Shown here: positions 475 to 51,400 of the stretch, piece by piece
Layout of the letters: each line of letters opens with the position of its first letter
Position numbering within the stretch: position 1 is the first letter of the stretch
Origin: Owenia fusiformis
Lineage: Eukaryota
DNA length: 64,000 bases
Direction: 5' to 3'
Assembly (NCBI GenBank): GCA_903813345.2
Contig: CAIIXF020000001.1
Location: 2,170,001 to 2,234,000, forward strand
Notes under the pieces: model-generated
Database searches by the model: none
The model's input: only the letters and a program-made list of their open reading frames with translations
Told to the model about the DNA's origin: nothing
Program-made: the position numbers and the translations under genes

Positions 475-3400
475 TGGTCTTGAACTAAACTATGAGAGCT
501 GTGCAATGAAAGGCAACAACCTGGTGCTCAAAGGCATTGTGGCAATAGGCAGTGTACCAACTAACACTGGCAAGGTAAGACTTTATGTATTACAGTAAAA
601 TCTCTAATCTGATCAAATGTGAACACTTTCTTTGGTCCCAATTTATTACCCTCTATTGATTTACAAATTAAGAAACTTGGATATGTGAAAACCTGCTAAT
701 CTGAATGTTTAACAGCCATTTTGGAATTGAACAGGTTTTACGGTACATCACATTGAACATAATAGCATATGGCATTATCGTATTATTACATGGTGTCACT
801 AAATTGAAGTTTCTAAGCATGATCAAAGAACAAAAATCATAACATTATTATTATTGAATATAATGAATCACAGGTTGATTATTATTGAATGATATGATAA
901 CTCTAGTATCAGTCAGGTATTCCCTCTTAAAAATAAGAAATAAAAAAGGTCATAAATGAATAAATTAACTCAGTTTCTCAAATTCTGATTCTACTTTACC
1001 AATAACCTGTTGTAGAATTTCACACTAGAAGTAAAGATTGCTGGACTAGAGTTCCCCACCCAGACATTGAAGATCAGAATGTTACCTGGTAAGTAAAATT
1101 TTACTTTTGAGTTTAATAATAAATGTTACCTAGGAGGTTTAATAGAAAATGTGACCTGGTGAGATCAATAATAATGTAACCTGGTAAGTAAATTTTACCT
1201 GATCATTTTGATAATAAAAAGTGCTTGTCGCTTTTTTATTTACCTACTTTTGAGAAATATTCCTCTATCAATTATTAGTTGCATAACTTTTATCCTTTTA
1301 TCGATTTGTAATCTCAAATCATCAATCTTTGATTCAATATTGCACAATCTTATGCTCGAGAAGGAATTTTCAATATGGCTGCTCAGTTCCAAAAGGCTGC
1401 CATTTTTCATAAAAGATGTAATCTTTGATAACTCAAATATCAGTTGATGGATGTGACTCGTATTTTACATGTCGGTACCTAGAGACAAAAGAGCCATGCC
1501 CAAGAAGAAATTTTCAAGATGGCTCCTGAATTTCAAAATAGCTGCCATTTTTGTAAAAATTGTAATCTTTGATAACTCAACTTCAGCAGAAGGATTTTTA
1601 TGATGCCTACAGACTAGGGACAAAGGAAGTCAAGAAGAATTTTTCAAGATGGCTACTGCCTTTCAAAATGTTTCATAAATAATTTTGATATTTTGGTTCA
1701 AATTTTATATACTGATGCCTGAGGGTCATATAAACTCTATTTACAAAGTAATTTTCAAGATGACCATTCAATTCAAAATGACAGCCATATTTCATAAAAA
1801 GATAAAATCTTTGGTACCCTGATTTGACGAATTTGATTCAAATTTTCATAAAAAAACCCAGCTTTGAATACCAGTTAAAGGATTAGGTGCAATTTAATGC
1901 TTCATGGTTATTAGACCTTTGCTGAAGAATGAATTTGATACATGGCTTCCCATCATGTCATGAGTGTAGAATTTGCCAAAAGGAGACAATATTGCTCATT
2001 TATTTTCTGGTCAGGGAGCATTTCAAAAGATCAATGCCAGAAAATTTAATTTAATTGAACAGTTAGGGAGGAGGGGGTTATTAAAGGATGTATATAACTA
2101 TCTAGGCCTTAGAAAACGTTAAAAATGACTTTTTGAGGATAATCATCAATTTGATTCCTATTAATTAACTAAATCTAATAAATGCACTTTCAATTTTCAA
2201 GTATGTCAAGGTGCCCTAATGACGAAAGTGAAAGTGTTTGGCCGTTGTCAGGAATCCTCCAAAACAAATGTCACAATGAATGTCGTCATATCATCCAACA
2301 TATATTGATGACGTAATACTCGCAGCCCGCTTTTGTGGAAATCCAATGTAATATGACGTCATTTCCGTAACGACGATATATTTGGAGAAACCTCCCAACT
2401 CTTAATGGATTCCCCAAATTATTTTACATTTATAATGAAATGTTCAAAATGAACCCTAACTAGGGTATAATAAACGTTCTATCATATTGCAATCGATTCG
2501 TCATATTTAATATTAATATATGATAATAAAAATGCATTATGCTTTCAAGTAATAAGCCCAAAAACGGAAATGTTATTGTATTTGATTTAAAGCAGAACTA
2601 ATGGTTGGCGCTCTGTTCATCTCAATATGTAGCTTTATGTGTAATTGATGAAATAAAACTAAAACTTTTTAAAAAATATATTAGGTTAAGTGATCATATT
2701 TAAAATAATAGTATCAATTGACCCACTGACATAGTTGATGAAGATAGCCATTTTGCATCAAGGCCACCGGAAGTGTGACGTCATATCGACGTTGGTCGCT
2801 ATATTGTAACCCAAAAGATGGTAAAATATGCCCCACAACATATTTTGACAAACTCAATAATTGACTAACTCGCTTTATTTAAACATATTCATTCATTCCA
2901 GACAAAATTCAAATAGTTTTGGTAGTGTAATACAGCTTTAATAAGCCGATAAATACAAAATAGTGTCACAGTTTGACCCCCGAACTTGAAGAGACTTTTA
3001 ATGAAAAAAACATCAGAGATTGTTGGTTAATTTATGATGTTCAATGACTTATTAATAGGATAGTTTCTAAATAGCAGAAAAATCAATGAAATCTTGTGCT
3101 GCCATCTTTTATTCAGCTTTTAATTTGAGCTAGAGTTCCATTCACTTACATGCTAAAATCTTGGAAAAGTGGCTTCATTTCATGATTTATCAAAGTGTTA
3201 TTTGAATCTGTATAAAACTTGAATGATATACTTCATGATGACCCTGTTTATGTACATGTTGTGATTAAACATGTAAATGTTGATTGACATACAAATAATC
3301 CAAGGTTTTAAAGAATTTTAGCATTGCATCTATGGATATTTGGCCCAAGTTTTTTTTAAATTGTCATAGAAAATTATTCAAATTACATAACTGTGTAAAT

Positions 3401-6400
3401 CAAAGCTATTATAGGAGAAAACATTTGACTGAATTCAAATATGCCATTTAAAAGAAGGTAATGTAAGTCATTAGAGGTCTAATATGCAAGTCTCTTAAAA
3501 TCTCACGAAAAACTAGATTTAGCGAGATTTCAAAAGCTATATGGAAACTATACTATTGATAATAGTGGCATATTACCACTTTACATCCAGTCATTTATGT
3601 ACTGTGTATGTCTTTTTACTGTATTTTAATGATTTCTTACCATATATAGGATGAATTTTGATGTTAACAGCAATATTTGAAAAAAGGGAAGCCCATCTTC
3701 AATTCTGCTCAATTACTTTGGCAACTTCCGGCCTATGTTTTCGTGAATTTTTCAATCAGTTTTTCTTTTCCTGAGTTCAATTGAGAAGTATTACCTTTTA
3801 AAATTAATACACTGAAGTGTAAAAATGATGAACTCTCAAAAAATAAAACCCAGTTTTTTCAATTCTTAATTTCATGTCATTGTTTCTAACAAGTCACCCC
3901 TTTCTTTCTTTTCATATATTTTGTCAAGTCAAAATCGGAGTTTAATAACCTGGTTTCTTTACAAGCTATGCTTATGTAAGTATCAAATAACATGAAAAAT
4001 GTTAAACCTCACATCTTACATTGATTTGATGTGAAATAGTGATCATTGACATGATTGTTCGGCTGTTATGTTTGGATCTTTTAATTTTATTTTACCAGAT
4101 TTCTTTTTTTCTCATAGTCAAACTTGATCCTTGATCTCTGTCGATGTGACGTCACTCATTAATTATGCACGCATGCACAGTACAATAAAGAAGGCAATAT
4201 GGCAACTAACACAATTCTGAGCCAGAGTTGATATCTCCAAATTGAAATGAATATGTTTGTTTATGCATCTATCGAGGACATATGTAACCCAACTAATCTT
4301 TTTAATGATATACTTAATATTTCAATGAATTATACTTACTTTGTGAGCTTATTATCCCTTTAAGGTGGGCCCCTCGTTAAATACACTGGACGAAATGTTC
4401 TGAAAATTGCTAAAAGTAGAGGTCATTGTAACAGCTCCCACTCCGTCAATATTTTTTGAATTTACATTTTCTTCATATGGAATGAAAGATGAATATCTAC
4501 TCTAAATGTAATGAAAAGTATTATACATACATGGCAACATGCTGAATTAAGGCTTTGAAAAGGTGTCAAAAACTCTTTCATAGTTATATACAACCTTTAA
4601 CCTTAAAAGTTATCTTTCCAACATTGAATAATTGACTGCATTACATATTGTGTTAGATATAGTGTGACCAATGAAATAATGCAGATCAACATTTCTCAAA
4701 CACAATTATGATGGGGAGGGAGGGTGGTCACATATGAACTGTTCAAATACAGTTAGGAATACAACATTGAACTTTGAGATGTTTTCTTAGTTCCTTATTT
4801 CTACCATGTAATGTTCAAAATCATAGCACAATATGTTTATTAAAATATGTTTGGTTGGATTTGCTACTCTGGAGTTGCTGTTTAGTAGTTGTAACAATAT
4901 GGATTGCTACAATTTATCATTATGTATAATAGGATATTATTAGTACTGATGCCCTTTTAGGGCCAACCGTACATCTGATATATGATAATATATATCTGCT
5001 AAATGATACAATATGGATTGCTACAATATATCATTATGTATAATAGGATATTATTAGTACTGATGCCCTTTTAGGGCCAACCGTACATCTGATATATGAT
5101 AATATATATCTGCTTAAATGATACAATATGGATTGCTACAATTTATCTGCTTAAATGATACAATATGGATTGCTACAATATATCTACTTAAATGATACAA
5201 TATGGATTGCTACAATTTATCTGCTTAAATGATACAATATGGATTGCTACAATTTATCTGCTTAAATGATACAATATGGATTGCTATAATATATCCGCTA
5301 AATGATACAATATGGATTGCTACAATTTATCTGCTTAAATGATACAATATGAATTGCTACAAGATATCTGCTTAAATGATACAATATGGATTGCCACAAT
5401 AATAATAACTAGACTTTGGAAATTGAGCAAGTTCAATTTCAGACTCCAGATTATGACCTTTTTTAGCCAAGTCATCCAGAATAAGCCGAGTCATCCAGAA
5501 TAAGCTGAGTCATCCAAAAAAAGATGGATGAATAAAATAGGAAGGTAGGATAGGATAGAATAGGAAGGAACGATAGGATAGAATAAGAAAGAAGGATAGG
5601 ATAGAATAAGAAGAAAGGATATGATAGGATAGGATAGGAAGGAAAAGATACGAAGGAAGGATAGATAGGAAGGATAGGATCAGATAGGAAGGATGGATGA
5701 ATTTTTCAATATTTTCTTCTCTACTCTTGACTTTCTATCAGGATACCATCAGATCGGTTTCAAAACGCCATAACTTCCAAACCGGCAGTCAGATCCAAAT
5801 TTGGTTTGCAGATTCGGATTCCTGACAAAATTCTACCCCTGATTCAAAACTCATACGTTAAATTTAGAAACTTTTTATTTTGACCTACTTTTTGGACACG
5901 CCATAACTTCCGAACCGGAAGTCGGATCGAAATTTGAATTGCAGATTCGGATTCCTGACAAAATTCTACACCTAATTCATAACTCATACTTTAAATTTTG
6001 AGATTTTTTTATTTTGACCTACTTTTCGGACACCATATCTCAAAAGTGGGTCAAAATACTTTCTGATTGTAAAAGGCTAATACTATTAGCACACTCTTGG
6101 CTACATGTATACACAATTTCGAAGAATATTATTGAAGTGTAGTGTCAGAAACGCAAAAATAAGGAAAACCTTTGAATTTGACCTAGATTTTGACCTAGGC
6201 ATTTTGGTGTCCAAATTTTGAAACTAACTGGCTTTTGAGGTCCCCTTCTTTTGAAGGCTTTCATTAAATTAAGCTGAACTCAGTCTATATTTCGTATTTC
6301 TCACTTCCAAAAAATCTTTTTTTCCATTGACTTAACATGGGCACCAAATTTAGCGATTTTTGAGCTTTTAAAACGCCATAACTTCCGAACCGGAAGTCGG

Positions 6401-9400
6401 ATCGAAATTTGGTTTGCAGATTCGGATTCCTGAAAAAATTCTACCCCTAATTGATAACTCATACCTTGAATTTGGAGAACTTTTTATTTTGACATACTTT
6501 CTGGATGCCATATTTCAAAATCGGTAAGAGTAATCAAAAAACGGATGGCACTTACATGAAAGGGCTGTTTCTAAGCTACATGATGAAAAAAAGATGAAGA
6601 CGTTTCGATAAATAACGACTAAGATAATAGACAGAAGGTTGAAAATGTAAGATTTGACCCAGTTCTAGGATAGGATAGGATATAGAATAGGAAGGAAGGA
6701 TAGGATAGGAAGGAAGGATAGATAGGAAGGATATGATCAGACAGGATAGGAAGGAAGGATGGATGATTTTTTCTATATTTTCTTCGCTACTCTTGACTTT
6801 CTATAAGGATATCATCAGATCGATTTTTCTCGAAATTTCAAAACGCCATTACTTTCGAACCGGAAGTCGGATCGAAATTTGGTTTGCAGATTCGGATTCC
6901 TGAGAAAATTCTACCCTAAAGTCATAACTCATATGTTAAATTTGGAGAACTTTTTATTGTGACCTACTTTCTGGACGCCATATTTCAAAATCGGTAAGCG
7001 TAATCAAAAATCTAATGTCATATCTTTGCTTTGGGTTTTTCTAAGCTACATGATTTAAAAAAGATTTAGGAGTTACGATAAACAACGACGAAGATAAATG
7101 AAAGAATGTTGAAAATGTAAGATTTGACCTAGGACTTGACCTTTGACCTAGATAAAAATTTGACCCAATTTCCGAGAAACTAGATCTAGGACCTAAATGG
7201 ACCATATATAAGACTTGACTCAATATCTTCTAGTTAACGAGAAAACTGGGAAAGAATAATAAACAAAGAATAATAACTAGACTTTGGAAATTGAACGAAG
7301 TTCAATTTCAGACTCCAGATCTAGACTTTTTTAAGCCCAGTCAACTAAAATAAGCCGAGTCATCCAGAATAAGCTGAGTCATCCAGAATAAGATGGATGG
7401 ATAAAATAGGAAGGTAGGATAGGATAGAATGGGAAGGAACGATAGGATAGAATAAAAAAGAAGAATAGGATAGAACAGAATAGGAAGAAAGGATATGATA
7501 GGAGAGGATAGGAAGGATAGGAAGGAAAGGATACGAAGGAAGGATAGATAGGAAGGATAGGATAGGATCAGATAGGAAGGATGGATGAATTTTTCAATAT
7601 TTTCTTCTCTACTCTTGACTTTCTATCAGGATACCATCAGATCGATTTTCCGAAATTTCAAAACGCCATAACTTCCGAACCGGAAGTCGGATCTAAATTT
7701 GATTTAAAGTTTCGGATTCCTGACAAAATTCTACCCCTAATTCATAACTCATACGTTAAATTTGGCGAATTTTTATTTTGACCTACTTTTTGGACACGCC
7801 ATTACTTCGGAACCAGAAGTCGGATCGAAATTTGGTTTGCAGACTCGAATTCCTGAGAAAATTCTACCCTTAATTCATAACTCATATGTTAAATTTGGAG
7901 AACTTTTTTCTTTGACCTACTTTTCGGACACCATATCTTAAAAGTGGGTCGAAATACTTTCTGACGGCAAAAGGCTAACACTATTAGCACACTCTTTCCT
8001 ACCTGTATACAAAATTTTGAAGCAAATCATTTAAATATAGTGTCAGAATCGCAAAAATAAGGAAAAACTATGAATTTGACCTAGATTTTGACCTAGGGAT
8101 TTTGGTGTCCAAATTTTGAAGTTGGCTAGCCTTCTAGGTCCCCTTCTTTCATAGGCTTTCATTATTTTAAGCTGTACTTAGTCTATATCTCGTATTTTAC
8201 ACTTCAAAAAAATCTTTTATCCCATTGACATAACATGGGGCACCAAATTTAGCGATTTTTGAGCTTTCAAAATGTCATAACTTCCGAACCAGAAGTCGGA
8301 TCGAAATTTGGTTTGCAGATTCGGATTCCTGAGAAAATTCTATACTTAATTCATAACTCAAACGTTAAATTTGGAGAATTTTTTATTTTGACCTACTTTT
8401 CGGACACCATATCCCAAAAGTGGGTCAAAATACTTTCTGATGGCAAAAGGCTAACACTATAAGCACACTCTTGGCTACATGTATACCAAATTTCTAAGAA
8501 TATAATTAATCTGTAGTGTAGTGGCGGAAAGGGTTATTTTTCTATTTTAAAGAACCTTACGGGCAATAAAAGCTGCAAATCGCGAATTCCAGTTCTGATT
8601 GACAGAAATGGCATCCCATCAACTCTTAGTAAAGATAAGGCCAATATTCTTTTAAGACACTTTATTAATAAATATCATATAGAAGAAGAGCTTCCAAATA
8701 TTGCCTTTCCCACTCGATGCAATGCACTCCTCAATCCCATAACAACCACCCGAGATGAGATACTTAAGATTCTAACGGGATTAAATGTATCAAAAGCACC
8801 GGGGCCTGATGTGATAAACAATAATATGATGAAAATAGCTGCGCCTGAACTATCAATAATCTTATCTAAGTTTTTTAATAAAATATTTTTGTGCAAAACT
8901 TTTCCTCTATCGTGGAAAATTGGCAATATAATACCAGTCCACAAGAAAAAATCAAAATCTGATGCTGCTAATTACCGACCTATCACGCTCTTAAGTTCAA
9001 TGTCAAAAGTGTTTGAACGCGTTATCTTCAACCGGCTCTTTCAACACTGTATAGAAAATCATACCCTATATAGCCTTCAAAGTGGGTTTCTACCAGGGCA
9101 TAGCTGTGAACGCCAGTTAATTTCTATAATTGATTACATAACTTCCTGTATAGACAATGGTGATGAAGTATCTGGTGTGTTCTTAGATATTTCTGCGGCA
9201 TTCGATACAATGCCTCATAAATATATTATTACAAAATTGAAAAGCTATGGTTTTGGCCCCAATACAATTGATCTTTTATCATCTTATTTGTCAAATAGGA
9301 AAGTTCGCGTATTGGTCGACGGTCACGAATCTAACTACTCAGCTGATTCTTATATAAATGCAGGAGTGCCACAAGGGTCGATATTAGGTCCCCTTATGTT

Positions 9401-12400
9401 TCTACTGTACATCAATGATATGCCAGACAAGTTAACAAATACATCCTTTCTTTATGCCGACGACACGTCCATTTATTGTCCATATAATAAAGATAATCTA
9501 ATTGATAAAATGACAACTCTTCAAGAAGACATGGATATTATTAATGACTGGTCAAACCTATGGCATCTCAATTTCAATGCAACTAAGAGTGCCCATCTGA
9601 TATTTCATGGAAGAAAAATAATTGAAAACATTTATCCTCTTCATTTGGGAAATACGCGTATACCTAAGTATGATCACCATAAGCACCTTGGACTTATATT
9701 AGACGGAAATCTAAAATTTAGCCATCACATTACTGAAATCTCGAAGCGCATTGACAAATTAATCAATCCCCTGAAAGCCTTAAAATCAAAACTTAATGGT
9801 ATCCACCTATTAAACATCTACAATACATACATAAGGCCACACTTTGAATTTTGTGATATAATCTATGGCTGCCCAAATATAAACAAATTAAAATCCCTTG
9901 ACTCACTAATGTACAAAGCTGGTATTATTATATCCGGTACCATCTCAGGATCTAGCTCAGCCAAAGTCCTCAAGTGCCTAAACTGGTTACCGCTCGAAAC
10001 TAGAAGATTCCACCGCCGCATGAACATGATGTATAGTGTCACAAATGGAAATAGTCCAAATTATATACTTGACATCTTCAGAAAGTTCCAACGTCCTGAC
10101 AATAGACGCGTTCTTCGCAACAAACCATCATATATCCTCCCCACAAAACGTGCTATTATTAAATCAAAATCATGTGTTTACAGAAGTATAAAAGAATGGA
10201 ATGATCTACCTCTGAAAATTAACACACTTGATACATTTAAACGTAAAATGGCCTCCAAATCACTACCAACTCCTATAATAGCAAGTTTTTCATTAAATCT
10301 TACCAGACATCGGGAAAAACTCTTGAACCAACTCCGATGCGACCTAGTCCTCAAAGCGCAACTACACTCACACAATTTTAACAATGTTAATTCCCCAATG
10401 TGCGCTTGCGAACTAGAATCAGAAACACTCAACCATTTTCTTTTCAGATGCCCCCTCCATGTAGATGATTTCAAGTTGCTTAACGATAAAATAACACGTG
10501 AAAATCCAATGATAAAGTTTAACTCTCTAACTCGAGCCAATAAGGCTAACACTTTACTATTTGGTCATCATCTCTGTAATAAAAATGAAAATTCACGTAT
10601 CATCAAATCATTTGCTGAATATCTAGACATAGCATTTTCTAACCGCTGAGTCATTCTTTAGAGCACCACCAACATGCTACTAGTCGTGCGAGCCCCACTT
10701 GGCTGTATACCTTCAACTATGTAACACCGATGTACGTCAACTCCTATATTTCTGTAAAAATGGCTCATAATGTCAAGTTGACCGAGCCACTGACTTAAAT
10801 ACTAAATAAATAAAAAAAATCAAAAAAATCTGTAGTGTCAGAATCTCAAAAATAAGGAAAAACTTTGAATTTGACCTAGATTTTGACCTAGGCATTTTGG
10901 TGTCCAAATTTTTATGAAAAGAAGGTTTTGAGGTCCCTTTCTTCTATGGGCTTCCATTATGTTTAGCTGTTCTTAGTCTATATCTCGTATTTTATACTTC
11001 AAAAAAATATTTTTTCCCATTGAATTAACATGGGGCACCAAATTTAACGATTTTTGAATTTTCACAACGCCATAACTTCTGAACCGGAAGTCAGATCGAA
11101 ATTTGGTTTTCAGATTCGGAATCCTGAGAAAATTTCCTATAAGACTGATATCCTGGACATTGGATTCGGAGAACTTTTTTTGGACCTCGTTTTCGGGCAC
11201 TGATATCTCGAAATCGGTTTGAGATACCAAAAAACTAAATCGACCCTAGATTTTCTACATTTTTATGAGGAACACAATGAAAAAAACCCGGATCCAAAAT
11301 ATTGAAGGACGACCGAGAAAATCGAAAAAAGTGACAAAGTACTGGATTTGACCTAGTTCTTGACCTTTGACCTAGATAAAAAATTGACCCAATTTCCCAC
11401 CAACTAGATACTGAACCTAAATAAACTGTATTATGGTCCTTACTGGATACCTCATAGTTATTGAAAAAACTCCTAAAGAATAATAAGAATAAGAAGAATA
11501 CTGGCAAAAACAATAGACTCCAGATTGACATCTGGAGTCTAATAATAAAGAATACTGGCAAAAACAATAGACTCCAGATTGACATCTGGAGTCTAATAAT
11601 AATAATATATATTTCATTTTTTAGTCGATTTTTACAATAACATACAGTTTTTATGGAAAAATAATGAAAATGCAATGACACTTAAAATAAGTGTATTAAA
11701 TTACACAATAGTTTTAATAAATGTTTATTGGAAATAGAAAAGGTACAAAAGAAAAAGAAAAAGGGAGTCATTTGAAGGGAGAGTTTGCAATTATGGGTAT
11801 TCAGGTTCAATGTGTCTAATCTAACAAGAACAATAACAATAATGTATAACAATAATGTATAACAATAACAATAATGTATAACAATCATCTATGTTAGTCA
11901 ATGATGCAGTTTAACCCCTGGTTGGCCCATGTACCCCCCTAGGATGTCACCCTGCACCACTAACCAACATGTATATATATATGCATAAATGATACAATAT
12001 GGATTGCTACAATATATATGCATAAATGATACAATATGGATTCTTACAATATATCTGCTTAAATGATACAATATGGATTGCTACAAAATATCTACTTAAT
12101 TGATACAATATGGATTGCTACAATATATCTGCTTAAATGATACAATATGGATTGCTACAATATATCTGCATAAATGATACAATATGGATTGCTACAAGAT
12201 ATCTGCTAAATGATACAATATGGATTGTTGTATTGACTCTATATTCAATTGCTTCTCTAGAGAGAGCCTATGACACCCTATGCAGACAGAGCCTGTGGGA
12301 AATATTGGGTGCGGAGCAAATGAGCGGAGGGTGCGGAGCTAACGGTCATTTTTGAATTTAAAGGACGGGTGTCATTAAGGGCCCTTTTTAGCCCCCAAAG

Positions 12401-39400: not shown

Positions 39401-42400
39401 GTAGAATATTTACTTAGAGGAAAACAGTCCAGGAAAGGATAACCACCAATACACACTCCGCTTCACTGTTAAGTGTGCCAGCATACCTAAGAATAAAGCC
39501 ATTCCACCTTATGAAACAACCTTCCAGTTCCACAATAGTAAGTACTGTTCTCATCATAATAAAAACATGTGGAAACAGAGGCTTTCAACTTTATTTTGAT
39601 TTTATATTACATTTATTAAGTATTTGTTTAGTAAGTAAAGTAATACATGTACATAAAATGATCATATTAGTATGTACTTAAGATGAATTGTCTCTTTTTC
39701 TACTTGGTTGTATACTTTGAAACAGAAATGTTGGCATTTGGTGCAATATGTTGTGGCATGCATGGCCCTTTTATATTTAATGCAGGTAACACCTGAGAAG
39801 ATTTTGAAAAGCTTTACAAGTGGGCCAAAAAAAATTTTTGATTTGGCATATTTTCATCTGTTTTTTTTCATCAGTTTAATTCCAAAATACAAACTATGAC
39901 ATTTAAATAAACATATCTTATAACATGGCAATAAAACAAACATAAATACTGTACTTTCTCATTTATTAGTGTAAATAAATATTATATGTACAAAAATATT
40001 AAATTGATAGTGAGTTTATTGACGTGGAATATATAAATAGCAAATAATGTACTTCTGGGTATAAATGAATATTAAAACGGCACCAAGTAGCATCAGTTCA
40101 AAACTTGAGCTAAATGAGAAAGATGCATATAAAATCATGTGTTATCATGTGTAAGATATTGTTTATTCATATGTGACATACAATTTCTTTATAATTACAA
40201 TATTATGCTATTAAAAAACGTCCTCATATACAACGTATAACACTTGTTATATGAAAACATTTTAACTTGAATTTGAATATACATGTACATATGTGATTCT
40301 CTCCCTTTAGTGAAATTTACTGGTCTCCAGTGACCAAAGTCATCATTGCAGGACATGCATTAACTGTGCTTGTTCAAAAAGTTTCATGAGGAAACTCTCT
40401 TAACTCAGTTAACAGAATGGACCTATTTCATATTTGTATGGGAGATTATACATGTAGTATGTAAACTATGTAAAGTGGTGTTTAGCCTCATAGCCCTGTT
40501 GAAAGATATAAAATCCATCTGCACCAATAGTTCATATGGCTATTCCAGGTAACAATATCTCAAAAACTGTTCTACTGATCTACATGCCTTGTATTTACAT
40601 TTTTCCTTTGTTAGCACAGCACCATATCTGAAACATTTATTAAGTTATTGAGATGTAGAAACATTGGAAAAGGTTACTTCTATACTTAGCAGTTATGTCC
40701 CTATCATTGAATATATGCCTGAGGTCTGTTATCAATATAGCCCAAGCTTGCGAGGGCTATATTACGACAGACCGAAGGCATATATTCAATGATACGGACA
40801 TAATTGTTGTATTACATACCTTTATTTCCATGGCTACGTTATATCAATGACATCACACGTCCGTTTGCGAGTGAAATTTGGACAAAGTGAAACATGACGT
40901 CATTAGATTGTCATGGTAAAAAAGTTTGGCGGCTGTACAGGAATATATAGCCGACCTTCAGCTCCATTGCCTTCCATACAAATGATTCGCTAGGTATGTA
41001 ATACACATACATATCCAATTCATATCAGTCAGTGTCTGGTTAATAATATCAGTAGTGTCTTCTTGCAGTTTGATGAGTGGAAAATATATGAATTTTAGTA
41101 ATTGAAATAGAATTATTTATCCAGTATTTGGACATGTTTGACAGCAATTTTTTCAAAAAATTTCAGCAGCAAACTGGATATGGCTGATTGGGCATACATA
41201 TTATATCACCACAGGAAGATTTTCATTAAAATTTTGGACAAAATAAGATTTTGGAAAAAAATAATGTTTCTTAAAGCTTCAAATATGAGTGTGTAATGAT
41301 CAAACAATGTAGTTATAATATAACATTCCAACTTACCCAGAGAAATGCCATGTTTGTATCATGATATAACCATTCCTCATTCTATATCCTGTTTGGGCCG
41401 GGACCACTGTGTTATCTCTGTTGTATCTGACCACATGTAGCCTCCCCTTGTGGGCTATAGGTGGTGCTGGGATCATCAGCGTGATGGGCTCCATGAATGA
41501 TGTATCTGGCTGATGTGTGATATGTACAATGTCTCCTATACTAAGTATATTGTCTATAACAGCACTGGTTTTCTTAGCTCCTAATACAACTTCTTGATCC
41601 ACTCTCTCAATCTGGAACAACAATTATCATAGGCTAAAAGGCGATAGAAATAATTTTGGAAATAAAGATGGCCATGCAATCAATCTGGTTTACAGATTTT
41701 TCATTTTTAGTAGAGAATATAATAAGATTCTACCACTGCTGCCATCTTTATATCAGCCTTATGAGCAAAACGTTGAAGGAATAAATAATAGGAGGCATAT
41801 TTGTGTCATCAATCAAACTAAAAGGTTGCAAGTTGAGTTTCAAGTAAATGCAAGAAGTCACGCATCCAATATTGGTTCAATGCCAGTGAGATCACCATAT
41901 TCCCTTCTGATGCAGCCATACAAAGTGTCAATACAAGTACTAGTATAGGAAGAAATGATTTAAGAATTGTAGGATTACCTGCATAGTGAGTTCAACGTGA
42001 TCCAATACAGCCCTTACTGGGTATGTGATCCTGATGTTAGGGTCATGCCTGGACCTATACACCCCACCTACATTGGTCACATAGTAACAATCTTTTTTAA
42101 GCCTGTGTAGGCCTCCAAACCTGCTATGTTGTTTCCTGCGCTCCAAATCAGGGGAGATGACCCCATGGTCAGGGCTCTGTGGTTGCCCATCTATAAAACT
42201 AGAAACAGAAATAAATACACATTTTCTTCTGCCCAACTCTAAATATGGGATTTGTATGCATTTTACATTTTTTCATGGAAGAAGTGACATTTTATATTGG
42301 TTGACATGTTCATTTATATAATAGGGGTTTGTATTGTTTCATTTTCAAATGTTGCCATTTGTCTTTTTCATTTTACTGAGGATTTTTGATCTCTTACCAC

Positions 42401-45400
42401 ATCATTGGTTACAAGACTGGGTCCTCTGTTTCTCTTAAAGAAATATTTGGCTTGATTCAAGTTCTATATTTGTTGTTGCAACAATTAAATGACCTACTTT
42501 TTGTTGAATAATCCTTTGTGTGAGATGACAGGTTGAAGTAGTTCCTCATTCAATAATGCCTCCACTTGGTTACATACACCCAGTAATTTAAAGTCAGTAC
42601 CCTTAACAACCCTTTCTCCTCCATTGAGATAATCTGCAGCCCTTGGTGTTGTAGATTCAGTATAACTTGGTCTTGATGGTTCATCCTGGAGATATTGTGA
42701 TCTATGTGGATTGCTATGGTTACCATCACTATGGTAACCCAATCGTTCTTGTTCATCAATCATATAGTCTGGTCTTGGTGACTTTCTGAAGTCTGAACTC
42801 TGTGGGGGTTTGGTGGGGTGTGATAGGGGATCAGGATCAAGAGAAAGGATATCAGTCATTGATGTGTTTAGAGTGAATGCTGTGTCGGTGTATTCCAATT
42901 CAGTGTCACTTTGTATTGCACCATGAGTGTAGTGTCCATGCCTGTCAATAGCCATGTCCATGTATTGCTTGTGCTTTGGAAAATACATTGCATGTGATTT
43001 CCTACCAGTTGGGTAATCAGGAACTAAGTTTTCAGTGTCTATATCTGTGATATCAGCCTCACTGTGGCGTATTGTACTCCCATCATTGGCAGCCAGAGAT
43101 GAGGCAAGATTCCTATGATGTACATCGCCATTTGGTGTGAATTGATTTGAACGATACATCAAATCACCATTTGACTTAGATCTATGTTTCAGCTTGAGAT
43201 CACCATTATGTTGAGCTGTGGGTTGTTTGTGCCTTATATCACCATTAGCGTGTGCTTTGTATTGTTTGTATTTGAGATCACCATTGGATCGAGATGACAC
43301 CAGTTGTCTGTTGCTATAGGTTGTACTGGATGGGAAGGTTTTAAGGGGTATGGTCGATTCATCCAAATCTGGCTTGGAAGTATATAAGGAGACTGGGCTT
43401 GGCTTGGTTGAGAATCCATATGAATGTCTGTCATGTTGACTGAGTTTGTGGTGGTGTTGTAGATCTTGCTCTATATGCTCATTCTGGCGCCTTCTCTGCT
43501 CCATGAGGTAACGTTCTTTCACCTTAAATCAGAAATGACAATATTTCATTTCAAGGATAAGAATCTTTGAGTTTCTCTTTTTCCTTAGTGAGGAACAAAT
43601 CAGATATTTTATTGTTGGCTCTTTTAATTAACTTAATTTATGGTTCAGACAGTGCAATATAGCATCATCCATGTTTATAACTTCATGTACAGCATACTAC
43701 TTATATGATTTGTTCAGATATGCGATTGTGAGATTCCTAGTCAGAGAGCATCTTTTTCATATATCACAATTTAAGAACATTTCTGGCTCATTATTCCTTG
43801 CCATTTCTATTTTCTAAAAAACATGATTGGTCCATATTTTATTTCATGGAATCTAGAGTTGAGATTTTAGAGATTGAATCCATACTAATAATTGAAGAAT
43901 TTGATCATCCAAGTTTTAAATCGTAATTTGATATAAACTGTGTAATAAAGTACTACAGTTCCCTATAGCTTTTTAATAACTCTTTTATTTTAAACTGACC
44001 TGTCTTCTTCTATACTGTGAGCTTGAACTGTTAACTGTGGCCATCAGCGATGATGTCACAGTCTCATTGTCATTGTAGAATTGAGGTTTAACAATACTGT
44101 CAGGGCTGTTATGTGCTGCCAAGGCTAAATTATGTTTGGGTTTCACACCATTATGGGCAGCAGCGTGGTCATTCTTCTCATAGCCTTTTCTACCAGTCTT
44201 GGGTGTTCTACAAAAGTAATTGTAGCAGAGTTATAGTAGTTATTTATTCATGTACAATCATTATACAAATGGTGCAGAAACTTAGATCCCCAATAAGGTA
44301 ATAGATACGGATGCTTCAAATGTAAGCAGGGATCTTCTTAATTTTAAAGCATGTGCTCAACCCACTTGAGATTTTGAAGAGGCTTGCACCAATCTGAAAA
44401 TCAATTTATGCTCACTTGAAAATACTCAAGATAAAGTTTGGTTGGGATTACAAACATGAGAATTTTTTACCCATTTGAAAAATACTATTTAGGAAAAACA
44501 CTGCATTTCATTTTTCATTTGTTTCTTCTCAGTATACTTACTTTTGGTGCTGATTTTTCCCATGGTTGTCATACTTCTTGTAGTATTTGTTAATCTCATC
44601 TTTGTATTTCTTATCATTGCTGCCAGGATTGCTGTTCCTTAACCTGTTCCTTGTGAAGAACTTTGAGAGAGTTTTCTGCCAGAAACTTGGTCTTCTCGCA
44701 TTATTAACCTGACCCTGTCCATCTGAATCAGCGTCATCATAAACGCTATCTGGTATTTCAGATGGTGAGTGGATTCTGTCACTTACAGGAATATGGTTCT
44801 GTTCTGGTGGTCTTGATTCATCTGGGACTTCAATGTTACAATGAGATCTTGGTGTTGGTTTAATAGAGTTGATATCATTAGTGTCGGGGTCTGTAAGTTT
44901 AATCACATTTCCTCTGTGTTCAACCTTATTTCCCTTAATGTTGAAAAACTCAAGGTTGTCTAATTCATCAATGACTTGAGGTAAGCTGGTTAATTTGTTG
45001 TTCCCCAGGTCTAATGTCTTCAGGTCTTTCAGCAGTATGATATCCTGGGATATGTATGATATGCGATTCCCATTTAGCTTCAATCTCTCTAAATTAGGCA
45101 GGTTATATATACCAACAGGCATGCTTTCTAGGTCATTATTGTTTGCATTTAGGTATGATAGCCTCTTCATTTTGTTCACTGAGAAATGCTTCATTCTGTT
45201 GTCCGCAATGTTTAGGTATTCTAATGACTCTAGGTTATTTGGTAGAGCCAGGAGTTCATTCCCTTGGAGCTGGAGAGTCACTAACTTGGTTAACTTCGTC
45301 AGCCTGGGTGGCACATATCTTAACTTATTATCTGCTATGTTTAATACATGGAGATTCTTCAATGTTGAGATTATTGGTGGTATTGTTTCCATTTTGTTAC

Positions 45401-48400
45401 CTCCAATATTTAGATCCTTAAGGTGTTTCAGGTTTCCCATTTCAGATGGGACATTCAACAACTTGTTATTTTTCATATTGAGAGTTTCTACATTTTTCAT
45501 TGCACATACGCAGAATGGGATTTCCTCAAACAAGTTGGAGCTGAGGTTGATATGCTTCATATGTCTAAGACTCTGCAAGGAGAATGGTAGATGCCAGAGT
45601 CTATTCCCCTCCAAGTTAATATACCTGAGGTTATGACACTCTCCCACTGCATGAGGAATGCTCTCAAATTGATTATGGGAAATATTGAGAGTATGTAGAT
45701 TCTTGAAGTTTGAGAAACGTGCTGGAAGAGATGTGATGTGATTATTGTGTAGGTGTAACTCCTGTATGTAATGACAGTTTGTGATTGTATCTGGGAGAGA
45801 TATCAGCTCATTATTATGTAGATCCAGCACTTTTAGATGGTGCAAGTGTGACACTGCAGATGATAACAACCGAATCTTATTCCCATGCAGTTTCAGAATC
45901 TCGATACGTGAGAAATTGAAAATCTCCTTTGGAGCTTCTCTGAAGTCGCGATGAGCTAGATTAAGCTCTACCAATCCTTCTTTATTGAGCGTGACATGAA
46001 TTCTCATCCTCCTTGGGTTGGTCCTAGGGGACTTAATCATCTCATTTTGACCGCTATAATCATCCATATGTCCAAGCATATAGGGGATTTCTCCAGCCAT
46101 ACTTGTCTTTGGTTTATCTTGCTAGGAGTGATACAGTTTACATAAGCATTGTCTTCATCAGAATTCTTCTTTTAGAATATTTATGTGGTTGGTTTACAAA
46201 ATCATCTTCTTTTAGCATTTTGTTGCTCATCATGTTAGTTTGCAGTTGGTGTTATCTGAAAAACATTTAAGCAATATGTTTGAATATAGGATAACTAACA
46301 TAGCTTTAATTGCAATAATCTAATATATCATTGCTCAGAATGTTAGCTTTACCTCACTAATCCCTCATCATATGTTTGTCCTATTAAGCCATATTAGTAC
46401 AAATCAGAGAATTTAAATAAATATATACATAACATGTAACTAGTGAGATGTTAGTCATACTCATCTACGCAGTGTTGTTTGTTATTTTGAAAATGGAATT
46501 GATTATTTATCGATTTTGTTTGACCTTAATTAAAAGTAGATGTATATAAAGGTCTATAAATCTCCCATAATTGTGAACATTAGGATTCTTAATATATTCT
46601 AAGTTTATTTAAGGGAATGTAACATCTGCAGAGTCTGAAAATTGATTTTAAATCATTCTGCTGTATACAAATTTTGTAATTCTATGCAAATCCATGTATG
46701 CTTATGCACAAAGATAGTCACTGTATAGGATAAAGATGCCTACAAGCTATTCTAAGTAAAAAGGCACAATCATAATATCTATTTTCCAATAGTGGAACCT
46801 CGGATGATAGTTTGATTAGGTTTGGATTAGGTATGATTAGGTTAGGATTAGGTTACATGAATGAGCATGATAGAAGAAAGTTGATATATTTTGTTTTTCT
46901 TTTGTGAAGGATAAAAACCATGTTGTTAATATTGATTTCCACTGCAATTTATCAATGCAAATGAACAGGTTTAGTTAATAGGAGCAAATTAATGAAATTG
47001 CGATACAGAGTATTGATCCAACAAAAATGTGTTGCCATTTATTTATCTGATAATGCAATTAATCAGAATAATTTGAGATTTGTATTGTGTGGTTTAGACA
47101 GAATATTTAGATTTTGCATGAAGCGATATCTGTGTTGTTGTCTAAAGGAATGTCATGCACCAGCTGTCTCAGATAGAAATTTAACATGTTTATGGTTTAA
47201 TATAGAATGTTTAATTATTTTTTAGAACTTTGGGTATGATATCCAGGATACATTGGTCCATTTAATTCTTTCATTGAACTTTCTTCTACCATTTTACCTC
47301 TGCAAGTCAACTGAGTTACTGTTGGCTAATATTTTGAATATTAAACTGCTACATTACCTTTCAAGAGGGGACAAAATTGATACCCCTAATGTTTTTAGCT
47401 CGTGATTGTGAGATGTGATTGTTGTTTATTTATTCCATATATTCCAAACATAAGTGATGATGACTGAAAATATCTACATTGACTGGAATCTGAATGCAGG
47501 GTACATCTCTAATAGTCTCTCACCTAATTGATCCTATGTTGTACCTTATATTACCTATTGCTCTGAGTTCCATATCAAACAAGTAGGTTAACGCAAGTTT
47601 ATCCATATCTGATTCCAGTGAGTACTACTTGAAACTTCCTGGAGTTATTGAACCTATTAAAGACCTTGTGTATGTCACATGACCAAATCAATAGCAGGTC
47701 ATGTGACTTGTAAGCAGGGCTAATCAATTTCACATCATGTCATCTTTGTATATCCGATATTTTTAGCTGCTTTTCAAAAGAAGCGTGTTTCAAATAAAAT
47801 AACATAGGAATGATGCATTGATTGCTACCGAGGAAAAATCATTCTGCCTTGACACCAGTTTACTTTTCCGATGTTTTCCTATATGCAATGAAGAACTCTA
47901 TAGCATAGGAATGAACCATATATGAAATATTCATGGGCACAATCCACATGGGAATTGTTTAGTTCCATTTTAATTAATTTCTATTAGCTTGTTGCATGCT
48001 GTAAGATTGGCGTTATTATTTCAAAGAACTCAGATTTGAGAAAGTTTCCTTCCATAATATATAAGTATATGACCCATATTATTTATCAATTTCATGAAAA
48101 TTAAAAACTTCTAGAAACATACCATACATATTACCAATTCTAAGACATTTTTGTATATCTAACTATAGTGCACTAATTTTGAAATTTCAACTTTCACAAT
48201 GGAAAACTTCTATATTCTTTTTTATTACTTTACATCATTTAACATGTGCAGTTGTGAACTTTAAAGAGTTTACATTGACTCTTGAGAGAAAGCCACAGAT
48301 GACTTTTTAACATTATTTTAACAATAAACTTATACCTGTCATCCATAGCTATTGCAAGTGCACTCCATTCAACTCTTGATATTCCAAAATTTCATGATAT

Positions 48401-51400
48401 TTTTAACATCAGTTCAGTTGTAAACTGTAATCCAAGGGAAAGCAGAATTTCACTTATAAGCTGTTTATTCAAATGTGTTCCTTACAAATCTTGATCTGTG
48501 TAATCTGCTAATGTGCTCACCACTCCCTTCGGCATCTTTCAAGTCTTAGTTCCCCATCGTAAATAATTAAAAGACATTGGAACGAGATTAATTATTTATA
48601 TAAAGTCTCATGTAGAAATCATATAACTGTAGCTAGTTATAATCAATAGAACTATGCTGAACCAATACTATCATGTATTAGTGTTTCATTAAAAGATTAA
48701 TAAAATGATTTATGGGTATGTAGGCCTTTGAGTTGCTGGGTTGTGGAGGTTACCTTGGTTACGCATCAATGTTGTTCCTAATAAACTGTTTAAATAGTGT
48801 AATTGCACTATAATGTTTTCAGGAAATATACGATTTTCCTATTAGAAGACAAGTTAGACATAAAAATCTACTTCTCGTAAGAATGAATAATAAAGTATAT
48901 AGTGATGGTTTCTAAGATTTGGAAATTGCTATGTGATGTACTTTTGTTGATTATTATTAATTTGAAAACATGATTAACGTACAGCAAAACCCAATTTGTC
49001 TTATCTGAACACTTTTTGGACCAGCCAAAAGTATTCTGAATAACAGGTGTTCACATTTCAAGGTTTCTTTAACAAAGAAGCCAATGGGAGATTAATACAG
49101 AGAAAGTGTTCACATTGAGAGATGTTCCCATTACAGAGGTGTTCAGATATATAAAGGTTTTACTGTATTTGTTATATATTATCAGAGAGAAACATACTGT
49201 GATTTAAATGTACTTGTTGTCACTTAGCAGAAGCTTCATATTTTTGTCACAAAGCACACATCAGATTAGTGTTCTTTTATTCTCAAAATGTCACATTATA
49301 TTATTATAATATTTGGCCTATTAATCATGCAGCATGTGTATGTGTATTTAAGATGTGAAGAAACAGAGCCAGATGGCCTCCTTTAGTAAGGAGAGGGACA
49401 CTTTAAAAGACACCATAGAGGCCTATAGATCATGGTTTGAAACAGCCGAACAACTTGTCAATGAGCTAACAGGTAGGTGGTTATAGAATACTGTTGCTGT
49501 AGCATTAGAAACAATTCACTATGATGTCAACTATGATCTATAGCAATGATGCATGCTGGGATTTAATACAGTGCATATTAGTGAATTTGTTCGGTCTCAT
49601 AAAGAATCCCATCCGAAATCTCAACTTTGATGCTTTATTCATATTACATAAGAATATTCTGAGTAACATTTATATCATGCAATTTTATGTTATGTTTACA
49701 TTGTAATGTTATTCAGCATTTACATTACAATCATATGTTATGTTGTTTTTATGTGTATTGTAGTGTCCAAGCATGAAGCTAACCTAGAAGAACAAAGATT
49801 GAGAAATGAGTTACGTAAACAGAATGTTCCTGTTTCTCACCTTGCTTCTGTGAGTATTCTACAGTCTACTAGATTTAACATTATATTTACTTACGGTCAA
49901 ATCATTTAAAATTGAAAAAACGTCGACCTTTTCAATTTTCGGGTAACATCAAACATCATAGGATTAACCTGACATAAAGTCAGAATAGTTGGATGTTTTA
50001 GAAAATAGGCATGGCAATGCTTTGTCATGGCAACTTGTTCTCAAACTTCTAACCAAATTTTATGTGTTAGCAGCGCAGGCCCGTAGCCAGGATTTGCCAA
50101 GGGGGGTTCAGTTTTCAAAAATTTCCAGGGGGGTTCACATTTGACAATTTTGGCCCAAATATGGCTAAAATCACTTGAGAAATGCTCAAAATGGTGAAAA
50201 ACTGCATGATTTTGAAAGAATTTTTGGCCAGGGGGGGGGGGTTCGCCCGAACCCTGCGAACCCCCCCTGGCTACGGGCCTGCAGCGTAACAATTGTCATA
50301 GTGATTACAATATTCCAGCCAAATACAGTAAAGGGTCTGGTAGCAACACGGACAGCTGAGCGAGACACCATGTTAGATAAGCCTCGTAGAATGTGTGGAC
50401 TGCAACCAGCTCCTAAACATAAAGAGGTTTTAGGAAAGGTCAGTCATCTTCTTCGATTTTATTTATATATTCTGTAAACTGTATTGGAAAAAATGTTATG
50501 AGATTTTTCTGAGTTTTGAATTCTAAACAGCAGGAATTTGTAAGTAAATAGGAGTAAACAGTCTGTCACTTGTTCAGTGATATCAACTTGTTGGAGTGTA
50601 CTATATCACTGTTTCGTAGAAGCCTTATTATAATGATTACATATTCTATGTTTTAGATTGCTCACCTTGCTCAGGTAGAAGATGCTGCAATAGCTCGTGT
50701 GTTGTCCTGGCACATGTCGGCAGACATGGACTGCGTAGTCACATTAACCACGAAAAAAGCCAAGGTTAGTTGAAAGCAGTGTTCGGTTCATTCTGGGACT
50801 GTAGATGTGAACTTGTAAATCCCTTTTCGTTTGCTTGGCATTTGATGGCGTTTAATGAAGCTGTGCTAAACAGGAAAATAGTTTCAATTAGGTCCCAGTA
50901 TAAAGCATTTTAGTTACAATTTTGTCTTCACTTAGCTGAGATATGTTGTTCCTCTCTGCTATAAAGGGAAGTACTCAACCTTACAAAGCCAGATTACTTT
51001 TATGTTTAAATGTTTTCTAGGCAAGAAAGATATGAGGCCACCATATTATATTTAAGGATATTTCTATTTTATTGTGTTGCAGGAAATCTACAATGTCTCC
51101 AATGGCAAACAACAGGTGCTTCCCATTGACAGTATTTACAAGAAAAATGTGCCAGATTGGAACAGGTAATACAATTGGATTATTATATCAGTTAGAATGA
51201 AATGATGTATGAGTGACAGTGACGCTTAATTCTAGAGGCTTTTGTTTTACATTAGCTGTTTCAGTATCATCAATGCACTTCCAATCTTCATTTGTTTCAC
51301 CCAGTTCAATTCAGATCGGTAGGGAATCAGGGTTATCACATCTTACTCACTGATACTGTCAGCTCAACACATAACACATTATCTGTCTTATCCATTGTCA

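Follow-up and report, generated by a model that had tools for sequence, protein, structure and literature searches.

The SMCHD1 gene of the annelid Owenia fusiformis hosts two complete genes on its opposite strand, one in each of its two largest introns. Both guests lie in the stretch analysed here, a 64-kb window (C1:2,170,001-2,234,000 of a 499.5-Mb assembly) that contains no N. The first of these introns, intron A, holds a gene for a NERD-type nuclease joined to a superfamily 1 (SF1) helicase, and the second, intron B, a gene that combines leucine-rich repeats (LRR) with a ZU5 domain. The two arrangements are probably ordinary nestings of different age that arose independently and have no functional tie to SMCHD1 silencing: the helicase guest is a member of a roaming family, the LRR-ZU5 guest is probably an old resident shared across phyla, and a link between silencer and immunity is not supported.

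SMCHD1 silences repeats and clustered genes, a function known in mammals. No annelid data on this function were found, and SMCHD1 is unmentioned in the searchable supplements of the annelid studies examined, the large expression tables of which are stored elsewhere.

The SMCHD1 host gene

The last 29 exons of SMCHD1, which were read by eye and then fitted to GT-AG borders (the acceptor of exon 5 was set at 33363), form a single uninterrupted frame when spliced, which encodes 1,147 amino acids and ends in a stop (Table 1). Mouse Smchd1 (6n64) is matched by the hinge exon at 52144-52314 (E=2.2e-19), which places the expected SMC hinge homology at the C-terminus. Full-length SMCHD1 of Branchiostoma (P0161) is collinear with the locus exon by exon from residue 16 to residue 1980, to the hinge. 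The collinearity starts ~18.8 kb upstream of the window, and the GHKL ATPase exons, up to ~19 kb away on that side, belong to the same collinear gene. Both large introns are bridged without lost residues relative to P0161, 919-943 joining 938-1001 across intron A and 1592-1654 joining 1636-1674 across intron B. The gene is single copy, with all 13 hinge-exon matches in the Owenia assembly falling at its own locus.

Introns A and B are both phase 1 with GT-AG ends and occupy exactly the positions given in the initial annotation. Since the remaining 26 introns in the window measure only 138-2,176 bp and the largest gap upstream of it is ~4.4 kb, no intron elsewhere in the gene reaches their size. 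Each holds one whole antisense coding gene, as judged for the coding parts from exon models and homology. The claim that SMCHD1 hosts two complete antisense genes there is therefore borne out by intact reading frames and by the GT-AG phase-1 ends of the host introns, and the domain names that had been assigned to the guests are correct. Both guests had also been described as multi-exon genes, which suits LRR-ZU5 with its six coding exons; the nuclease-helicase has two coding exons only.

Within SMCHD1, an 80-bp unit derived from the 3' half of the hinge exon, splice donor included, occurs 13 times at 52241-53282 (plus strand). In-frame stops interrupt all the extra copies, and intact SMCHD1 results from the first donor alone. 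The acceptor and first codons of an exon of another gene, RINT1, are likewise repeated ~6 times at C9:9440263-9442352 (minus strand), and splice-boundary minisatellites seem to be recurrent in the Owenia genome.

The nuclease-helicase of intron A and its dispersed family

The guest of intron A has relatives elsewhere in the genome. At least six family loci are present, namely the window copy and the copies at C9, C1:16.85 Mb, C3, C5 and C8 (the own-genome searches gave 5 matches among 9 candidates and 10 among 12, both lower bounds). The window, C9, C1:16.85 Mb and C3 copies are two-exon genes with the intron at one common position; the C9 copy is 63-65% identical to the window copy and has a frameshift in a poly-A run, and the C5 and C8 copies are broken. 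Four of the six loci are antisense and intronic, in the unrelated hosts SMCHD1, RINT1, arginyl-tRNA synthetase (ArgRS) and plexin. On either side of the C9 copy, the RINT1 Pfam profile is matched at 64-145 and 145-193, and the exon ends around the C3 copy join to match yeast ArgRS, although two upstream ArgRS exons gave no match on their own. The C8 copy has the same orientation as the duplicated FN3/fibrinogen unit in which it sits, and searches of the surroundings of the C1:16.85 Mb copy did not identify a host. Four antisense-intronic copies out of six are within chance under an assumed background of 0.3-0.45, which is a hand estimate, and no targeting bias is claimed.

Because the family nests alike in unrelated hosts, and here in a repeat-rich, transposon-bearing intron, the nesting of the helicase says nothing about SMCHD1. 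The initial annotation had suggested a link to the silencer, which for the nuclease-helicase is not supported, given its similarly placed relatives in RINT1, ArgRS and plexin; its fallback, that the nesting is incidental, fits this diversity of hosts. A long interspersed nuclear element (LINE) adjoins the C9 copy, and no flanks shared with that copy, which would mark a transposon vehicle, were found. On C9, two near-identical retrotransposons of the long terminal repeat (LTR) type also stand in tandem, ~10.6 kb apart, at C9:9420114-9436099, one of them with an unbroken pol frame of 1,384 amino acids. A literature search found no paper on an animal NERD-helicase family resembling bacterial Nhi/AbiO.

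The two coding exons of the window copy give a protein of 680 amino acids that is free of internal stops. Exon 1 contains a putative nuclease motif (E near 117, D..QxK at 159-174), and the SF1 motifs I, II and IV-VI are intact, with Walker A at 344, DExQ at 419 and IV-VI extending to ~612. The NERD Pfam score is 19.9 bits for the window copy, under the cut-off of 22.1, and two paralogues exceed it (25.7 and 25.2); the single-sequence structure model of the nuclease (pLDDT 40) is too poor to use. In PADLOC the helicase exon matches RTasNERD-Hel, Nhi and AbiO (E 1.7e-13, 1.9e-10 and 2.4e-10) and the nuclease exon has no match. The top Atlas cluster for the helicase is SLN13 (score 0.98), the nearest relatives being Schlafen group 3 and bacterial NERD-helicases. 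The Schlafen core (AlbA_2) RNase domain was not found, and the N-terminal exon matches NERD/PDDEXK_9 only. With these motifs, the protein is most likely an ATP-driven enzyme that unwinds and cuts nucleic acids, and it plausibly has a role in innate defence, like bacterial Nhi/AbiO and the group-3 Schlafens.

The start Met at 22182 agrees with the start of the C9 paralogue, for which reason an upstream, frameshifted start at 22269 was rejected. The C-terminal tail of 55 residues is not common to the paralogues; its interpretation as a repeat insertion is unsupported, as it has just one match in the genome. The ratio of nonsynonymous to synonymous substitutions (dN/dS) relative to the C9 copy is 0.60 (95% bootstrap 0.47-0.77; dS 0.41; 577 codons), by which measure the gene is constrained yet fast-evolving.

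The nested gene occupies just 6.5 of the 29.6 kb of intron A, most of which is filled by repeats and transposon remains, a point absent from the initial annotation. At least 37% of the intron is repeated sequence (recurring inside the window or in a further 220 kb of Owenia DNA), ~6 points of which are paralogue matches to the nested gene. A LINE-type reverse transcriptase frame and an LTR-retrotransposon-type integrase fragment come in addition to this figure; no endonuclease domain was found in the LINE frame, which is read as a 5'-truncated element. Nested repeat blocks surround the LINE (4894-8519, 10831-12229, 17458-17965 and 28661-29435), with tandem arrays of 37-bp, 162-bp and 145-bp units. 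Upstream of the helicase gene, a broken frame at 23690-24010 (minus strand), which may be THAP-zinc-finger-like, is likely a DNA-transposon remnant.

The LRR-ZU5 gene of intron B

The six coding exons in intron B give a protein of 1,124 amino acids that is identical to the annotated Owenia fusiformis protein P0001, and poly(A)-signal hexamers follow on the minus strand at 40167-39595. Its predicted layout comprises an LRR solenoid (~35-390), ~560 disordered residues, a beta-sandwich (~960-1102, pLDDT 71-87) and a terminal helix. The Pfam ZU5 profile matches four of eight aligned orthologues, P0001 itself not among them, and Atlas gives ZU5 at 0.93. Fold searches, made with the full model, returned LRR proteins only, and the ZU5 exon has no sequence match in the PDB. 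As seven aligned orthologues share both ends, with CKYKAC invariant, the gene is a complete one; the Owenia genome has no second copy of it.

The ZU5 domain ends in H-F-S (41337-41345, minus strand), 30 residues before the C-terminus. Exact HFS occurs in 3 of the 14 sequences that have such an end, and the third place is S, T or C in 12 of these 14; two further sequences lack the end. In PIDD, H-F-S is the self-cleavage motif (PMC3210808). Cleavage of LRR-ZU5 at this place, if real, would free a peptide with the invariant CKYKAC helix. The protein is not a PIDD, because a second ZU5, a UPA and a death domain are missing: it stops 30 residues past the single ZU5, and the orthologues end similarly. 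No death-fold or TIR effector domain was found in it.

Intron B contains 4% repeated sequence, and its observed/expected CpG ratio (CpG o/e) is 0.26, compared with 0.56 for intron A. The LRR-ZU5 coding sequence (0.23) resembles the SMCHD1 exons (0.20), unlike the NERD-helicase coding sequence (0.45) and the LINE. This contrast fits a long residence of LRR-ZU5, and a shorter one of the NERD gene and the LINE, in a methylated gene body. A possible 5' untranslated exon of LRR-ZU5, proposed from the letters alone, lies at 48336-48550 (donor ~48335, acceptor 46254, minus strand) and would place the start of the gene within ~1 kb of the SMCHD1 exon at 49353.

Table 1. Features of the SMCHD1 locus, positions within the window, and of related helicase copies, positions on their contigs
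Feature	Position	Strand	Remarks
SMCHD1, last 29 exons	475..54819	+	Ig-like linker, coiled coil, SMC hinge; from splicing and homology
Intron A	1089..30690	+	29,602 bp, phase 1, GT-AG
LINE-type reverse transcriptase frame	8517..10649	+	710 aa; CpG o/e 0.82
NERD-helicase coding exon 2	15721..16906	-	Superfamily 1 helicase and tail
NERD-helicase coding exon 1	21326..22182	-	NERD / PD-(D/E)XK-like nuclease
LTR-retrotransposon-type integrase fragment	26182..26916	-	rve_3, below cut-off
Intron B	39538..49352	+	9,815 bp, phase 1, GT-AG; divides linker from coiled-coil and hinge exons
LRR-ZU5 last coding exon	40540..40627	-	Invariant CKYKAC helix and stop
LRR-ZU5 exon 5	41337..41611	-	ZU5 second half, W-H-F-S at end
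LRR-ZU5 exon 4	41979..42198	-	ZU5 first half
LRR-ZU5 exon 3	42498..43522	-	Disordered; conserved helix at its end, aa ~898-920
LRR-ZU5 exon 2	44000..44207	-	Disordered
LRR-ZU5 exon 1	44542..46100	-	Start codon, ~15 SHOC2-type LRRs, start of disordered region
SMCHD1 exon after intron B	49353..49472	+	In-frame Met at 8th full codon
Helicase copy, C9	C9:9450520-9459850	+	In ~24-kb intron between consecutive minus-strand RINT1 exons
Helicase copy, C3	C3:33280006-33283713	-	In ~14-kb intron between consecutive plus-strand ArgRS exons
Helicase copy, C5 (broken)	C5:22388295-22389087	-	In 1.2-kb intron of plus-strand plexin

LRR-ZU5 orthologues and their linkage to SMCHD1

A search from the snail orthologue (P0008) gave 13 matches, 11 of them from molluscs, one from the brachiopod Lingula and one spurious (13% coverage). 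It missed P0001; with the LRR exon as query the matches were overwhelmingly generic LRR proteins, and the ZU5 region of P0001 found only P0001 itself (1 of 972 candidates). Since the searches were swamped or missed true members in this way, absence outside Lophotrochozoa is not concluded.

Mollusc synteny was read through accessions, by which both genes were located in two species, linked in Elysia and split in Mytilus edulis. One 288,387-bp contig carries both GFR98419.1, an SMCHD1 fragment from Elysia, and GFR98426.1, the LRR orthologue of Elysia marginata. Linkage between LRR-ZU5 and SMCHD1 is almost certainly conserved, and with it present in Elysia, the nesting of this guest is probably not specific to Owenia, the outcome by which the initial annotation would have been overturned.

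Broken SMCHD1 models point in the same direction. Among 83 representatives, 17 start internally (between model residues 62 and 876; names were looked up for 17 of the 83), and 4 of these internal starts fall at the exon that follows intron B: those of Elysia, Batillaria, Mytilus edulis and P0191, the last with 414 codons on a contig of just 2,031 bp. Three of the four are mollusc genome models. Predictors that bar nesting are a known annotation problem (PMC10282587), and such predictors may have split the host models at intron B. The model P0158 is unbroken across the junction, which, as it is a RefSeq model, is neutral. A metagenome scan yielded two loci in 194 stretches, one (L040) an unrelated LRR gene and the other (L041) the last exon of LRR-ZU5, with no SMCHD1 exon in the following 1.66 kb. 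From protein comparison and linkage, the nesting of LRR-ZU5 appears likely to predate the annelid-mollusc split.

Contigs of sequencing runs and assembly

Four of the 11 listed sequencing runs were compared over 21301-41300; all consist of contigs, and their RNA status is only guessed. Contigs of X1, and some of X2, extend over exon-intron borders, so that DNA may be present in these two runs; for this reason, and because the runs consist of contigs, genes were not ranked or compared by depth, and uncovered bins in X7 and X11 (NERD exon 1, LRR-ZU5 3' end) were not counted as evidence. Record 15 of X11 places 183 record bases over 999 genomic ones, which corresponds exactly to SMCHD1 exons 14 and 15 spliced, and fits splicing across exons 13-16. 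Record 31 of X7 runs 948 bases beyond exon 16, where only 283 exonic bases are left before intron B, and thus appears to splice across that intron. For the guests, record 16 of X2 starts exactly at the helicase donor (21326) with nine unplaced letters, a hint of splicing of the helicase gene, and X2 contigs also lie over the 3' end of LRR-ZU5, so that this run touches all three genes.

Contigs from other individuals differ by ~5-7% from the reference in 21303-22158 (28/554 and 23/315), compared with only 0-2.5% for the SMCHD1 exon pieces listed from X7 and X11; the divergence in helicase exon 1 reflects high polymorphism or a close paralogue. Beyond SMCHD1, in convergent orientation, an exon of another gene (59559-60401, minus strand) encodes 280 charged, low-complexity residues and has no Pfam match.

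Two probably independent nestings and the alternatives

In the explanation that we favour, intron A would have been a landing spot into which a member of the dispersed two-exon helicase family was copied in antisense orientation. Retention of the coding intron speaks for a DNA-mediated copying, which would be an event of the annelid lineage; intron A may then have grown through repeats and retrotransposons. Intron B would represent an old lock-in, in which a single-copy gene for an LRR-disordered-ZU5 adaptor has stood antisense since before annelids and molluscs split and stays since leaving would damage two single-copy genes. Antisense guests may persist since the opposite strand avoids mis-splicing of the host, and weak interference or none would be expected between host and guest expression; an old nesting does not by itself imply coupling. 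The functions of the helicase as an enzyme and of LRR-ZU5 as an adaptor are predictions from sequence, and an immune role of the guests is suggested by resemblance only.

Several points weigh against this explanation. The helicase loci with a host shown are four out of six, C1:16.85 Mb and C8 being the others. The CpG depletion of the LRR gene may come from its own methylation. The nesting in molluscs is deduced from protein models and accessions: the two Elysia accessions are 7 apart and not adjacent, and Mytilus edulis, in one assembly, has its SMCHD1 fragment on a 4,004,397-bp contig and its LRR orthologue on a 154,734-bp contig. The in-frame Met of the exon at 49353 could alone make gene finders start there, and the SMCHD1 fragment of the annelid Ridgeia begins elsewhere (aa ~959).

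The Elysia and Mytilus placements would also suit a history in which both nestings are specific to the annelid lineage, LRR-ZU5 being an old neighbour that still lies beside SMCHD1 in molluscs and was engulfed or inserted locally in annelids; un-nested ancestral partners of nested genes are often near neighbours, at a median of ~10.8 kb (PMC5174743). We regard this history as unlikely, given that three mollusc SMCHD1 models break exactly at intron B and that intron B is repeat-poor and CpG-depleted like the host exons. Somewhat less likely still is that the LRR-ZU5 nesting has been kept as a regulator of its host, through interference of its transcription with full-length SMCHD1 in the cells that express LRR-ZU5, or through a two-way promoter, located shortly before the coiled-coil and hinge exons, that gives rise to a short, hinge-only SMCHD1 RNA starting its frame at the in-frame Met of the exon at 49353. 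Intron B does split SMCHD1 directly before the coiled-coil and hinge module, an in-frame Met stands near the start of the following exon in the worm and in the four fragments beginning there, among them P0191 with its short contig, and there is precedent in Caenorhabditis elegans, where nested ceh-10 induces a short polq-1 RNA (PMC12274878). The authors of that study nevertheless favour a functionless by-product, gene predictors that bar nesting account for the split models (PMC10282587), and no CpG-rich promoter is seen in 46-49 kb (CpG o/e <=0.61, against 1.2-1.35 at the SMCHD1 start). A functional isoform is its weak link: that a promoter-driven, functional hinge-only isoform exists, with the nesting dating from the common ancestor of annelids, brachiopods and molluscs, is improbable. 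If true, such an isoform would dimerise with full-length SMCHD1 and damp it in specific cells, as a nested switch shared across phyla.

The module suggested in the initial annotation, with both guests as immune sensors or effectors co-regulated with SMCHD1 in one silencing and defence unit, is highly improbable. It draws on the resemblance of the helicase to Schlafen group 3 and to the anti-phage Nhi, AbiO and NERD-helicases, on the layout and HF/S motif of LRR-ZU5, which recall PIDD, and on the contigs of X2 on all three genes. The helicase family, however, is nested in RINT1, ArgRS and plexin just as well, the guests are unlike in age and copy number, and LRR-ZU5 is a conserved single-copy gene that has no death-fold or TIR effector domain. 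Misassembly, which the initial annotation had named as a risk, would place foreign sequence into SMCHD1; no read or contig was seen to span intron A in the 20-kb stretch compared. It is an unlikely source of the nesting, and we give it hardly any weight in view of the exact GT-AG phase-1 ends, the collinear exons of a single-copy host, the lack of gaps, the contigs that fit the spliced exon model and the linkage in Elysia. On present evidence, the two nestings reveal no regulatory circuit around a silencer, and their significance is modest. They do draw attention to a lophotrochozoan LRR-ZU5 adaptor family, conserved and bearing a PIDD-like motif, and to a dispersed family of animal NERD-helicases that resemble bacterial anti-phage enzymes, both as yet uncharacterised.

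Comparison with known systems

The host agrees with vertebrate SMCHD1 (hinge 6n64) in its GHKL ATPase, long linker, coiled coil and SMC hinge, is collinear with the chordate gene and is likewise single copy. Human SMCHD1 is not known to host a NERD-helicase or LRR-ZU5 gene. A literature search, with subscription journals outside its coverage, brought up no report of SMCHD1 hosting nested genes and none on either guest family.

The helicase guest shares the combination of an N-terminal nuclease with an intact SF1 helicase with the bacterial NERD-SF1 helicases (RTasNERD-Hel, Nhi, AbiO) and with group-3 Schlafens of the SLFN11/13 type. Unlike in the Schlafens, its nuclease is NERD/PD-(D/E)XK-like, and no AlbA-type core or SWADL region was found; unlike the bacterial enzymes, it is encoded by a spliced animal gene. 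LRR-ZU5 resembles PIDD1 (LRR-ZU5-ZU5-UPA-death domain) in its N-terminal LRRs and in a ZU5 that ends in H-F-S (PMC3210808). It differs from PIDD1 in having one ZU5 preceded by ~560 disordered residues, no UPA or death domain, and 30 residues after the motif, which is not invariant among its orthologues.

Antisense nesting in the largest intron is a known norm. In mouse and human, 12-17% of genes are hosts, and guests prefer the largest intron (PMC11694760); in Drosophila, 71% of nested pairs are on opposite strands, the guests usually being young duplicates with divergent expression (PMC5174743). Nestings are gained more often than they are lost, and old ones correlate poorly with host expression (PMC3240667). 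The SMCHD1 guests conform to the Drosophila and mammalian nested genes in their largest-intron, opposite-strand position, with a guest that is often a duplicate, and several guests in one host are also known (PMC5174743, PMC11694760). In contrast to those, the helicase guest retains an intron and so is no retrocopy, and LRR-ZU5 stands apart as a probably old, single-copy guest.

For the latter, the closest parallels are the TipE cluster in CG18675 (PMC3240667) and ceh-10 in polq-1 (PMC12274878), in which an unrelated host and guest have long been kept together; in the polq-1 case the host is a genome-maintenance gene. These pairs are confined to insects or nematodes, whereas LRR-ZU5 in SMCHD1 would span two to three phyla if the mollusc nesting is confirmed. 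Confirmation from mollusc DNA would make it a cross-phylum nested pair and a marker of microsynteny, and would also account for the break that several mollusc SMCHD1 annotations have in common.

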